Positions 49,360 to 60,721 of a stretch of 64,000 nucleotides of DNA are shown here, piece by piece. The translations under genes and the position numbers were made by a program. The stretch covers positions 25,172,001 to 25,236,000 of the forward strand of contig OX597823.1 in assembly GCA_951406725.2 (NCBI GenBank), given 5' to 3'. The first letter of the stretch is position 1. Each line of letters starts with the position of its first letter. The notes beneath the pieces were generated by a model. It made no database searches, was not told where the DNA came from, and saw only the letters and a program-made list of their open reading frames with translations. The stretch is from Octopus vulgaris (lineage: Eukaryota).

Positions 49360-49480
49360 TATTGATCGCTTTTTTTTGTATTGTTTTTTCTTCTTTTTCC
49401 TTTTCCACCTCCGAAAAGAAAAGCTCTACATTTGTAATTGTCCCCTCTGTGTCCAGCCCTGTGTGGCCAATAAAGAAAGT
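49360..49480 (+). mobile_element. Tx1/L1-like LINE copy A (3' UTR only) in (CTAT)n
   Basis: Ends gccctgtgtggccAATAAAGAAAgt-TATC. The paralogous site at about 54165-54290 is an uninterrupted microsatellite. Confidence 0.85.
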
Positions 49481-49769
49481 TATCTATCTATCTATCTATC
49501 TATCTATCTATCTATCTATCTGTCTGTCTGTCTGTCTGTCTGTCTGTCTGTCTGTCTGTCTGTCTGTCTGTCTGTCTGTCTGTCTGTCTGTCTGTCTGTC
49601 TGTCTTGTCAGTTAGTTTGATAGATAGATAGATAGATAGATAAATAAATTAATAGATAAATAGGCACTGATCTATCTACCAGTATATATAACCGCGCCAC
49701 CATCTATCAGTCGGTCCACCTGTTCATCCGCCCGTCTTTTCATCAATCTCTTGTTTTTTCCATGAAGAA

Positions 49770-50230
49770 GGAAACAGCTGCCATTTTCTACCCCTCCACC
49801 CACGATAAAGCAGCCTTATGACCATGTTTATCAAATGGCGTGTCTTGCATTATATGATATGTATTCTTTAAGATTTCATCTATAATTAGAGGATTATGCA
49901 GATGTTCTTCCCAGTAAAGCAGTCGCCCACATACAGGAGTCTATTGTTACTAGATACGACTTTCCTTCATTACACTAAACTGTATGTATTCTCTACAGCT
50001 ACCTGTTGTACTAATAGGGCCATTTATTTAATAAAACTATTGACTATGTCTGGTGAACACTTAAAGCAGTACATGCACTTCCTTTCGTTGATGCTTCAAC
50101 TTACAGCTGCTTCTGTGTAATTATCCACTTCATATAAAGTCCTCAGTTTGTTAGTTCACGATATATTTATCACATTGCTTTTCTTGTGGTGTTTTAAAAA
50201 CTTTTAGACAGGAAAAAAGCTCTGGCTGAT
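49770..50230 (-). repeat. Inverted copy of part of the duplication unit
   Basis: Reverse complement of about 61450-61880 (and 57520-57690), for example ttatcaaatggcgtgtc vs gacacgccatttgataa. Confidence 0.85.
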
Positions 50231-56847: not shown

Positions 56848-59160
56848 TATCTATCTATCTATCTATCTATCTATCTATCTATCTATCTATCTATCTATCT
56901 ATCTATCTATCTATCTATCTATCTATCTATCTGTCTGTCTGTTTGTGTATGTGTGTGTGTGTATGTGTGTGTGTGTGTATGTGTGTGTGTGTGTGTGCAT
57001 GTCTGTTTGTTTGGTGTGTGTGTGTGTGTGTGTGTGTGTGTGTGTCTGTGTGTCTGTGTGTCTGCTTACGTATCGAACTACATAACTGTTTGCCTGCCTA
57101 CATGTCTACGGCTACTGTACGTTGGTAAAATTTTCACAAATACGCCAGTGAAAAAAAAAAAGGGGTAAATAAAATGAATTAATCAAAATAGATCCGTAAT
57201 CATTCTTTCTCTTGATGTGTTTCTCTTGCGTGCCTACATATCTAAGGCTAAAGTAAGCTGGTAAAGTTTGTTCAATACGGCTGTGAAAATTAAATAAATA
57301 CATAAGTTAATTAATTAAAATAAGTTAATTAACTAAAATGTGCCCGTACTCACGCTTTCTCTTGACGTTTAATGTTAACAATATGTTATAAACAAATGAA
57401 TATAAGTTACGATTGAGCAGACGACGATTAATTGCATGAACGTACATGCATTAAATGAAGGGCAATATTTAAAGATAGTACCTTTTCACTGACCAATCAC
57501 TATCTAGGCATCTTAAGCTTGTATGTGGGCGACTGGTTTACTAGGAAGAGCATCCACATAATCCTCTGATTACAGATGAAGTCTTAAAAAATACATCACA
57601 TATAATCCCAGACACGCCATTTGATAAACATGATCATAAAGTTGTTTTCTCAGAGGTGACAAGGGGTAGAAAATGGCAGCTGTTTCTTTCCCAACAGAAA
57701 AAGACAAATCTATGTTGAAACATTTAAACAAATATAAAGGAAATCATACGTGGGTTAACGGGAAGATGTCCAGAAGTAAGAGGGCAATGCATTGGATACG
57801 ATCATATTACACAAATGAACTGAGAGAGTGACAGAACATGAAAGATATTAACTAAAATGGCTAGCGGAGACAATATTGTTACTACAGATAAAGATGGGTG
57901 TTAGTTAAAGATGCATTGGTGGAAAGAATCCACGGCAATGAAATATAAAAAAAAAAAGCAGTTCTTTAGTTTGAAGTCATACCTGATCGAGCGATGAGAT
58001 CCAATATGAAAGGCAATTCATTCATGACAATCACCTTTGTTTTCAGGTATAGTGTACTTTGGAGAAAATCCTAAAATAAATGATGTAATGTTAAGGGAGA
58101 TTTCATTGCTATTTCTAGCATTTTGTGCAAAATTATACCGGCTCTATTTTTGGCTCATGGGGAGATTTGTTACGAGAGATATGAGGAAGAAATGGTGATG
58201 TTAGCTTTCAGGATGTTGTTAATCACAAAAGAGATGACAAAAGATGAGGGGCGAATGGTAATATATAATACGTTCAATCTGAATCAGAATGAAATGGTTC
58301 TGGTCTAAGGGAAATAAATCCTACGCACGGGAGGCAACTGGGTCCAATCGTAACATTTTCCGATGCTTTACAGCATATTTCAAGCGAAGTGCGTTGAGGT
58401 TACGAGGCATAGAAAATCTTCTTAAAGGAGTTAACGAGGCATATGTAACGAATGCTTCAGACGGAGTTTATCTATACATGACACTCAGTGTTATTAACAT
58501 GTTATATAATGTATGTAGATAGAACTAAAGGAGAAATCTGAAGAAACAATGTTTCTGATTGCTATATTCTAGCATGTTTTACTTTGTGAGTTTTATCTAT
58601 CATTTTTCACTTTATGTAAAGAAGTAAGCAATCTTAAAACTCGAACAATATTGAAAATATCATTTATCGCAATATTCAGTAACTGTATGCAAGTAAAGTT
58701 TTTACAGAATTTTGTACGGCTTTTTGAAAGAAAAACAAATGAAAAAAAAATCGTAATAACACCGTACTTAAAACCTTTCCACCTTTTCTCTTAACGTCAG
58801 CTGTTGTCCATATTTGAGTATTTGAGCAGACGACAATCGATTGTGCTAACGCGCATGCGTTAAATATAAAAAATAATGAAAAAATAAACCATTCTTTTCG
58901 CTGTCCAAATACTACGTCCGTAACCAAATAATCTCTGCTAATATCACCACCACCATCACTATCTATCTATCTATCTATCTATCTATCTATCTATCTATCT
59001 ATCTATCTATCTATCTATCTATCTATCTATCTATCTATTTATCTATCTATCTGTCTGTCTGTCTGTCTGTCTGTCTGTCTATCTATCTATCTATCTATCT
59101 ATCTATCTATCTATCTATCTATCTATCTATGTATCTGTCTTTCTGTCTGTCTGTCTGTCT

Positions 59161-60721
59161 GCCTTGCGGCTCGGTACCTGGAGAAGCAAGCCCATGCCAT
59201 CCACCAGCACCCCCGTCGTGGGACGCTGGACCGACGGTCCGGTCGAGTTGCTCGGGGTCTAGTTTGGTCCGGACTTCAAACGGAGGAGAACTGGAACAAG
59301 ATAACGAGTAGGGTGGTCACTCTCGCCCGGCAATGGGCCGAGAGGAAACTGTCCCTAAAAGGTCGGACGGAGGTGGCGAACACGTACATCGCGTCCGTCA
59401 TCTACTACCGCCTGACCGTCGTGCCTCGTCCTGACCCTACCATTACCAAACTAGAACGCATTCCCTTTCGCTTCCATTTGCTGTCAACACCCGTTAAAAG
59501 GAGGACTGGGCATGCTGTGGATGATGATGCGCAGACTCGCGCTGAGACTGCAACATCTCAGGCTGTACGTAGACGGTAGTGAACAGGTGTGGTCGCCGTT
59601 TGTGAGGCACGCTTTCCCGCAGCTCGTCTCTATTACCGAACTGCAGTCGTGGATTAAAAACTCGCCGAGGAAGGGCGAATGGCATCGCGAGTGTCGCGTT
59701 GCTCTCAAGCAACTATGCCGTCCCGGGTCGACCTTGAGTGACTTCAACACAACCAAAGCATTCTATAGGGGATTAGTGGAGGGGAGGTACGACGACGAGC
59801 TCGGGGCGAACCTGGACGTCGACTCGGAATACCTAACCCGCCTGTTCAGGACGATTTTCAGGCCAGGGCCCATGGACAACTTCCAGCGATCCCTGGCCTG
59901 GCAGTGCTACCGAGAAGCGCTACCTGTTCGGGATAAGCTCTACAGACACGGCTCGAGAAACACGGGGTCGACCTGCCCGAGATGCGGTCAGAGCGACGAA
60001 ACCATTCTGCACGCACTCGTGCAGTGTCCAACAATTTCGGACCTGTGGGCTTATGTCAAACGACTGCTGTCACGTGTGGGACGAGTCGGTTTATCAACCG
60101 AGTCTATCGTGAATATTGTCACACCTCCTTCCTTCAAACGGGAAGGAAGAGCTATTTTCATCATTCTTGTGGCTATGGTGAAAGAATGTATCTGGTGGAC
60201 GCGTCTGAAAGGATTGGAGACAAACACTTTTCTCTCTGGTCAATCTCTCAACCTCTTCAAGTATCACTTGAAAAGGAAAGTGAGAGTAGAGAGGCAAGTT
60301 TTATCTAACGAATGTTTAAAAAAAAGATGGGTGAATGTAGCAAGGATGGCACGTATGAATGACGAAGCCACCTTGAGCATCATCCTATGAACCCGGAAAA
60401 ATTTAAAACATAGGGTTACCTACTTGCAGACACATGTGGTAACATGTAATATTATTGACCGAGGTTACGGTGGTATTTTCCGTAGGCTTTTCTTTCTACG
60501 AATAAACCTTATTTGCTTCTCCCTTTACATTTTACATCATGGCATTTCTGTGATACACGATCCCTATTGATCGTTTTTTTTCTTTTTTTCTTTTTTTTCT
60601 TTCCCTTTTACGACCCCTTTTGATCTAAACCTGCCACACTTTTTTTTCTCCCCAAAAAGAAAAGGTCTACTTTGTAATCCGTCCCGTCAGTGTGCAGCCC
60701 TGTGTGGCTAATACTGAAACA
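59161..60721 (+). mobile_element. Tx1/L1-like LINE copy E
   Basis: ORFs 59313-59579 and 59512-60390 (292 aa, CPRC...H...C motif). 5' junction in (CTGT)n, 3' junction in (TATC)n. Confidence 0.9.

Follow-up and report, generated by a model that had tools for sequence, protein, structure and literature searches.

A LINE family of the L1/Tx1 group with a preference for (CTAT)n/(GATA)n microsatellites in Octopus vulgaris

Results

Five LINE copies run into TATC repeats on C10

We analysed a window of 64,000 nucleotides (the whole stretch at positions 25,172,001-25,236,000 on C10) of the 2.80-Gb genome of Octopus vulgaris. It contains five copies, A to E, of a long interspersed nuclear element (LINE), an abundant and recently expanded member of the L1/Tx1 group. 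The element prefers (CTAT)n/(GATA)n microsatellites, where it keeps a single orientation and register, probably by means of a nick of the GATA strand by its apurinic/apyrimidinic endonuclease (APE). An initial annotation of the window had proposed a site-specific element of this kind, and its five copies are indeed present, as 3' fragments of a genuine LINE mapping to the final 0.1-1.8 kb of the full-length element. The copies, the repeats beside them and two empty sites are as follows.

49360-49480, plus strand: copy A, 3' untranslated region (UTR), final 121 nt, of the subfamily with the end ...GAAAGT; 5' flank TATCTATCCATCTATCTATG, 3' flank (TATC)n(TGTC)n
49481-49605, plus strand: (TATC)n(TGTC)n tract 3' of copy A
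50396-50491, plus strand: (CTAT)n(CTGT)4 tract at copy B's 5' junction
50492-51468, plus strand: copy B, C-terminus of the second open reading frame (ORF2) to 51094, with the CCHC/zf-RVT motif, and 3' UTR; youngest subfamily
51469-51605, plus strand: (TATC)n tract 3' of copy B
51627-51746, minus strand: (GATA)n tract 3' of copy C, which is (TATC)n on the strand of the element
51747-52340, minus strand: copy C, end of ORF2 and 3' UTR, of the subfamily with the end ...GAAACT
55210-56847, plus strand: copy D, older, with a broken ORF2 (end of the reverse transcriptase, RT, to C-terminus) and a divergent 3' UTR
56848-56940, plus strand: (TATC)n tract, then (TG)n, 3' of copy D
58959-59160, plus strand: (CTAT)n/(CTGT)n tract at copy E's 5' junction
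59161 (about)-60721, plus strand: copy E, older, with a broken ORF2, and 3' UTR
60722-60826, plus strand: (TATC)n tract, then (TG)n, 3' of copy E
54168-54290 (about), plus strand: empty paralogue of the copy A site
47774-47842 (about), minus strand: empty paralogue of the copy C site

Copies A to D terminate in AATAAAGAAA-NN and copy E in AATACTGAAACA; all five run straight into TATC repeats without a poly(A) tail, and the sense strand runs with CTAT in every case, the minus-strand copy C included, as had been described. The 5' junction of copy C lies within a short CTAT run (52341-52352). Empty paralogous sites had been proposed for A and C and could be located, with upstream flanks 97.2% identical for A and flanks 95.1% identical for C. 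No copy lies in any of the window's 8 (TA)n and 13 (CA)n tracts; the initial statement to this effect holds for the window. Elsewhere in the genome some copies do lie in (TA)n. The CTAT tracts of the window all belong to one locally duplicated zone, and the five sites thus do not represent five unrelated loci.

The full-length element encodes an APE-RT-CCHC protein

We retrieved 20 stretches lying upstream of young copies; three of them, L037, L042 and L046, represent the full-length element and start directly behind CTAT-type runs. L046 measures 6,077 nt, with a 5' UTR of 220 nt, an ORF1 of 680 amino acids, an ORF2 of 1,145 amino acids that overlaps ORF1 by 4 nt and a 3' UTR of 380 nt, and intact copies are present in the genome. 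AATAAA sits 6-7 nt before the element end. ORF2 has the layout APE-RT-CCHC, with Pfam domains PF03372 (APE) at 20-208, PF00078 (RT) at 507-756 and PF13966 (zf-RVT) at 979-1031 and a C-terminal CCHC motif, and its best match in the PDB is human L1 ORF2p. The endonuclease (EN) residues N8, E37, D141, N143, D202, D226 and H227, aligned to the catalytic residues of L1 EN, are invariant in our alignment, and the predicted EN model (pLDDT 91) finds L1 EN as its best fold match (TM 0.84). Domains, closest structure and fold all bear out the initial assignment to the L1/Tx1 group. ORF1 has no Pfam match; it carries a CX2CX4HX4C knuckle (CYLCGSETHLKKTC), and its atlas neighbours carry zf-CCHC (score 0.91). 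Among named proteins, the closest to ORF2 belongs to Argonauta hians and matches part of it at 69% identity.

The family comprises several subfamilies, with the ends GAAACA, GAAACT and GAAAGT and, in the case of L032, an ORF2 that is 84% identical. Copy B is 99.0% identical to full-length L046 and 99.8% identical to other copies in its ORF part. The 45 copies within 2% of B have a mean pairwise identity of 99.4%, nine of them being identical (71 rows, final 600 nt of ORF2). Such identities, together with the intact ORFs, support the view that at least one subfamily was recently active, as had been suggested for the family as a whole; among the window copies only B is clearly very young, and D and E are older than a local duplication (see below). 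L163, L199 and L220 have an RT 95% identical to that of L046 and diverge clearly from it in the N-terminus of ORF1 and in the 5' UTR, which suggests replacement of ORF1 and the 5' region, or mosaic subfamilies. Inversions of the 5' part, as twin priming would give, are seen in L073, L106, L226 and L193; a count of 19 inversions in the 96-copy sample introduced below was inflated by UTR palindromes and was not used. Contigs placed on copy B skip its repeat-rich 3' end. Six coded organism labels contain 79-97% of the ORF2 words, which points to near-identical copies under more than one species label.

CTAT repeats occur at both junctions, in one register

We searched the genome with the 3' end and tabulated the flanks, as the initial annotation had proposed. 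The exact 24-nt 3'-end pattern has 9,103 matches, a lower bound, since it misses the ends of D and E, and the reversed control has none. The next bases are TATC at 7,986 of these ends. TATCTATC stands directly behind 6,652 of them, TATCT followed by a base other than A behind 516, TAT followed by a base other than C behind 561 and a base other than T behind 190. In the youngest, nearly identical copies, all 30 of the 30 3' flanks start with TATCTA.

For the 5' side we took the first 100 listed, position-ordered matches on C1, representing one chromosome end, and examined 96 of them; a junction was scored when a CTAT-phase run of 8 nt or more lay within 30 nt. Such a run is found at the 5' junction of 73/96 copies and at the 3' junction of 74/96 (both, 64/96; 3' side only, 10/96; 5' side only, 9/96; neither, 13/96), and the 96 copies have 92 distinct lengths. 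In a background of 20 fixed 10-kb regions (200 kb), the same run occurs within 30 nt of 409/39,880 positions (1.0%). GATA in the opposite orientation was seen in 1/96 copies, and poly(A) in 0/96 sampled copies and 0/25 ends followed by a base other than T. The fixed orientation and register that had been read from the window are thus a property of the family, and its 5' junctions do generally lie in or at the edge of CTAT tracts, copy D being an exception.

The 200-kb background contains 104 (TA)n, 47 (CA)n, 40 (TATG)n, 34 (TAA)n, 20 (GA)n and 16 CTAT tracts, from which rough arithmetic (6,652/16 versus 561/104) gives a per-tract preference for CTAT over TA of at least about 75-fold. As judged from these counts, the preference is strong, not absolute, and the minimal site appears to be about TAT(C)T. 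It is not the case that nearly all copies sit at one target, as in stringently site-specific elements of the R1, R2 and Tx1L type, and the term site-specific was to this extent an overstatement of a preference that is otherwise strong; the same repeat at both junctions, a fixed orientation and register and the existence of empty sites are the features of microsatellite-targeting elements. Head-to-tail arrays of different subfamilies with only (CTAT)n between them were also observed (L032-L048, L161-L162, L168 and L213), one gap being of five bases.

A different explanation would be that insertion is nearly random and that copies survive or accumulate in CTAT tracts through selection, recombination or assembly effects. 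Duplication, deletion and conversion did reshape copies D and E locally, but the register and orientation are already fixed in the youngest copies, the single-base register refutes such an origin, and insertions are seldom seen in the commoner (TA)n and (CA)n tracts. We regard this explanation as extremely improbable.

Target-site duplications place the repeat before the insertion

Target-site duplications (TSDs) were sought at 123 distinct sites with a 3' flank other than pure (TATC)4, a non-random set that combines sites of the C1 sample with others from searches picked for odd ends. TSDs of 9-17 bp are present at 15/123 of these informative sites, versus an average of 1.1 and a maximum of 3 in 30 shuffled pairings. 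One of them (C1_1840833) adjoins another copy and may be microhomology. In 14/15 cases the TSD begins at the first base past the element, with TAT, so that the 5' copy of the TSD holds TAT(CT) derived from the target. Read in this way, the sequences indicate that the repeat is the insertion target and not an encoded tail, as the initial annotation had argued.

The opposing case, that the TATC run is a tail encoded by the element which expands after insertion, the 5' tracts being the product of clustering or duplication, can draw on the copies with a repeat at the 3' side only, on the 11/96 copies that are tandem neighbours, and on the (ATT)n-preferring sister family described below, in which 3' repeats (37/39) exceed 5' repeats (20/39). 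It is hard to reconcile with 5' junctions in CTAT at so many different lengths, with tracts at the 5' side only, with empty paralogous tracts and with 5' TSD copies that contain TATCT. A TSD placed after the 3' tract, the arrangement that such a tail would give, was found at 0/15 candidate sites, and two long matches after the 3' tract are local tandem repeats. On this comparison of flanks the encoded-tail model appears already largely refuted, and we give it very little weight.

Several observations nevertheless count against the preferred explanation as a whole, or qualify it. At the 3' side, 1,117/9,103 ends continue without TATC. At the 5' side, CTAT is absent in 23/96 copies, although two of these have 5' ends beyond the 6.3 kb reached and were counted as misses, and the 11/96 copies directly behind another copy have as their 5' tract the 3' tract of that other copy. 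Exceptional copies lie in (TA)n, (CA)n or unique DNA, mostly beginning with TAT. Neither copy D nor its paralogue D' (see below) has a CTAT run at its 5' junction. By the strict rule no TSD is found at 108/123 informative sites, and in 58 sites none is found even at 7 bp; inside pure repeats a TSD is not visible. Lastly, at L073 the 5' copy of the TSD has TAG where the 3' copy has TAT, a difference that templating by the RNA would give. In L148, an insertion in a tandem unit, 7 bp of target are apparently missing between the flanks (target-site deletion).

A sister family prefers (ATT)n

One of the background regions (L260, C27 about 20.0 Mb) contains a related 3' end with (ATT)n next to it. 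It belongs to a sister family of about 5.8 kb whose 25-nt end matches 270 times in the genome (L260 and L346-L395 among the loci), with TATTATTAT within 12 nt behind 126/138 forward-strand ends; a tally for the reverse strand scored single sites repeatedly and was set aside. ATT runs occur at 37/39 of its 3' junctions and 20/39 of its 5' junctions, versus 1,211/39,880 background positions, several of the 5' ends being nested or crudely called. Its ORF2 is about 70% identical to that of the CTAT family, P0001 (EN, 64-67%), and in the tree it is sister to the CTAT family in a clade of 9 rows that includes the Argonauta protein (support 100/100). No intact full-length ORF2 was found among 20 long ATT loci. 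The two families share the TAT core and differ in the repeat.

Copies D and E have been reshaped by conversion and a probable deletion

The zone at 46.9-63.7 kb of the window is duplicated about 50 kb downstream (C10 about 25,271,000-25,287,500; L341-L343), in a segmental duplication made up of smaller units that recur, every one of them with a microsatellite. In the downstream block the A and C sites are empty, the B region is absent, an empty D/E-type site is present, and D and E have paralogues, D' and E'. E' shares both its 5' and its 3' end with E. D' reaches about 2.9 kb further 5' than D, and the upstream flank of D matches the flank of the empty D/E-type site, so that the 5' junction of D is most simply explained by a later 4.1-kb deletion. 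The initial count of five different 5' truncation points was thus an overstatement as regards D, whose 5' end is probably that of a deletion. The following tract was also identified.

55778-56268, plus strand: gene-conversion tract common to D and E, in which 30 informative sites group D with E

Outside this tract, at the 6 sites before it and at all those after it, D pairs with D' and E pairs with E'. From this pattern D and E are best read as two independent older insertions followed by gene conversion, both predating the local duplication, and conversion also explains a 27-nt variant confined to D and E. We had considered D and E as a single duplicated insertion, as suggested by their common flanks, their sister position and this same variant; the D'/E' conversion pattern rules this out. 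Palindromic, MITE-like (miniature inverted-repeat transposable element) inverted repeats lie elsewhere in the window, at 1-421, 2035-2420, 8137-8397, 10270-10463 and 24608-24795.

Discussion

How the repeat is chosen

The position of the TSD left edge suggests that the APE endonuclease would nick the GATA strand at 5'-AGATA|-3'. By the established chemistry of target-primed reverse transcription, the freed end would prime cDNA synthesis exactly at the 3' end of the element, and the second strand would be nicked 0-17 bp downstream; short pairing of a read-through UAUCU with the primer may help. We lean, with some reserve, towards the endonuclease as the main determinant of the target, since endonuclease swaps are described as exchanging targets between stringent elements (passages of PMC4014453 and PMC7265360) and no extra TATC units were copied at the TSD sites.

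The canonical site of cleavage lies 10-30 nt downstream of AATAAA, and in this family it would consequently fall in the flanking repeat. The RNA itself may guide the choice: the endonuclease would nick AT-rich DNA loosely (ATA|), only ends that pair with the read-through (UAUC)n would be extended, and each family would re-select the repeat of its source locus. The lack of poly(A) in the sampled copies, the restriction of conserved bases to the primer side of the nick and the TAG/TAT mismatch of the L073 TSD are in keeping with such guidance, as are the two sister families, with a common TAT core, different repeats and nearly the same hairpin loop. This loop, tied to the target choice of L1 EN in a portion of PMC1950540, shows one fixed difference between the families (S191T), a further point against the endonuclease as determinant. 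Primer pairing also has a precedent in L1, according to a section of PMC4014453. On the other hand, 14/15 TSD sites have no extra TATC units between the element end and the TSD, unlike L1 tails, and 49 fixed EN positions differ between the families, including loops beside the active site. We consider RNA-guided priming unlikely, though still a serious rival. A broader proposal in the same direction, which we hold to be equally doubtful, is that sister families of an undescribed octopod lineage divide the microsatellite niche, (CTAT)n versus (ATT)n, by an RNA-set switch in which the read-through repeat acts as a self-renewing guide, and the target would be inherited via the insertion site rather than via the endonuclease.

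Relationship to known LINEs

Returning to the family as a whole, its two ORFs, the APE-RT-CCHC ORF2, the EN catalytic residues, the 5' truncation and the TSDs are features of the L1 group, and the poly(A) tail of vertebrate L1-clade elements is lacking. Outside the lineage, ORF2 matches L267 best, at 472 bits, compared with 184 bits for human L1 (L267 against L1, 271), scores which favour Tx1. A gag-like CCHC knuckle in ORF1 is a feature of the Tx1 clade and is present in the CTAT family. In RT trees, which contained no L1-clade reference, the lineage falls together with 9-13 unnamed proteins, about 1,150 amino acids long, in a separate clade (99/99), outside the group of Keno-type elements and BAC82613.1 (92/98), a protein that presumably comes from the study of Kibi, Koshi and Keno. 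The protein search returned no named L1-clade protein as a tree reference, and P0074, L278 and L272, tried for this purpose, are by score not L1 proper. From these sequence comparisons membership of the Tx1 clade is likely. A large sister clade of unnamed proteins of about 1,150 amino acids (P0004-P0066) is 40-46% identical, and a metagenome scan for 43%-identical unnamed relatives gave 65 loci, all distant.

Two metagenome loci, L267 and L264, end in poly(A) and U2 RNA (L267:5815-5977; L264:4675-4885) and are thus of Keno type. Keno has a similarly short ORF2 (about 1,150 amino acids), whereas the CTAT family lacks the U2 target and the poly(A) and forms a separate clade; the window has no Rfam match, and the junctions of the family are microsatellite, not U2. 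The sequence 3' of the L267 and L264 junctions is GTATCTG, which shares TATCT with the minimal target of the CTAT family, possibly by chance. In L268 a U1 RNA match (9202-9356) lies about 1.7 kb downstream of an L1/Tx1-group ORF2, a possibly U1-associated element. Human L1 ORF2p has in common with the family its domain layout, EN fold and hairpin length, and L1 also shows TSDs up to 17 bp and 5' truncation and inversion; its target is AAAA and it has a poly(A) tail, whereas the CTAT family has TATCT, no poly(A) and an ORF1 with a CCHC knuckle.

Fixed-register, fixed-orientation insertion in tandem repeats is also found in Waldo, Mino, Dong, SART1 and TRAS1, which belong to other clades (R1, R4). 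The target of Dong is common to the ATT sister family, and SART1 uses a poly(A) tail, which the CTAT family does not have. Portions of PMC3812793 give the targets as (ACAY)n for Waldo, (AC)n for Mino and (TAA)n for Dong, and SART1 and TRAS1 insert in telomeric repeats according to a section of PMC7265360. Within the Tx1 clade, the parts consulted of PMC4494074 and PMC3812793 describe Kibi in (TC)n and Koshi in (TTC)n of teleost fish and crocodilian families in (TTCC)n/(TTTC)n. Like these, the CTAT family is an APE-type LINE of the L1/Tx1 group with a microsatellite preference; it differs from Kibi and Koshi in its target, its mollusc host and its position apart from the BAC82613.1 group.

The microsatellite targets of LINEs named in the consulted portions of the literature are TC, TTC, TTCC/TTTC, ACAY, AC, TAA and TG (PMC4494074, PMC3812793, PMC4640811, PMC4889948, PMC10294476, PMC1950540, PMC4014453, PMC8869645, PMC8967140, PMC7265360, PMC13282606). 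We found no description of a GATA/TATC-targeting LINE in the literature, though Repbase, Repbase Reports, Dfam or the Tx1 target figure of PMC4494074 may document one. An octopus repeat library is reported to hold 80 L1-Tx1 consensus families, 13 of them recently active, and the text and supplement terms examined give no target-site analysis (PMC13282606); a family like the CTAT family may well be among the 80. Microsatellite-targeting LINEs as such are already known, and what is new, as far as literature searches reach, is (GATA)n as a LINE target, together with an ATT-preferring sister family.

The targeting mechanism of microsatellite LINEs is described as not well understood in part of a review (PMC3812793). 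In the present case a single genome contains a pair of sister families whose ORF2 proteins are about 70% identical and whose hairpin loops are almost alike, and the two prefer different repeats, which makes the question of endonuclease versus RNA directly testable, and the retention of intact young copies in the CTAT family helps in testing target switching. The family also provides a natural enzyme for inserting into a non-coding repeat that is common. For the octopus genome itself, a large share of GATA tracts can carry LINE ends, which is relevant to microsatellite markers and to the turnover of the tracts.

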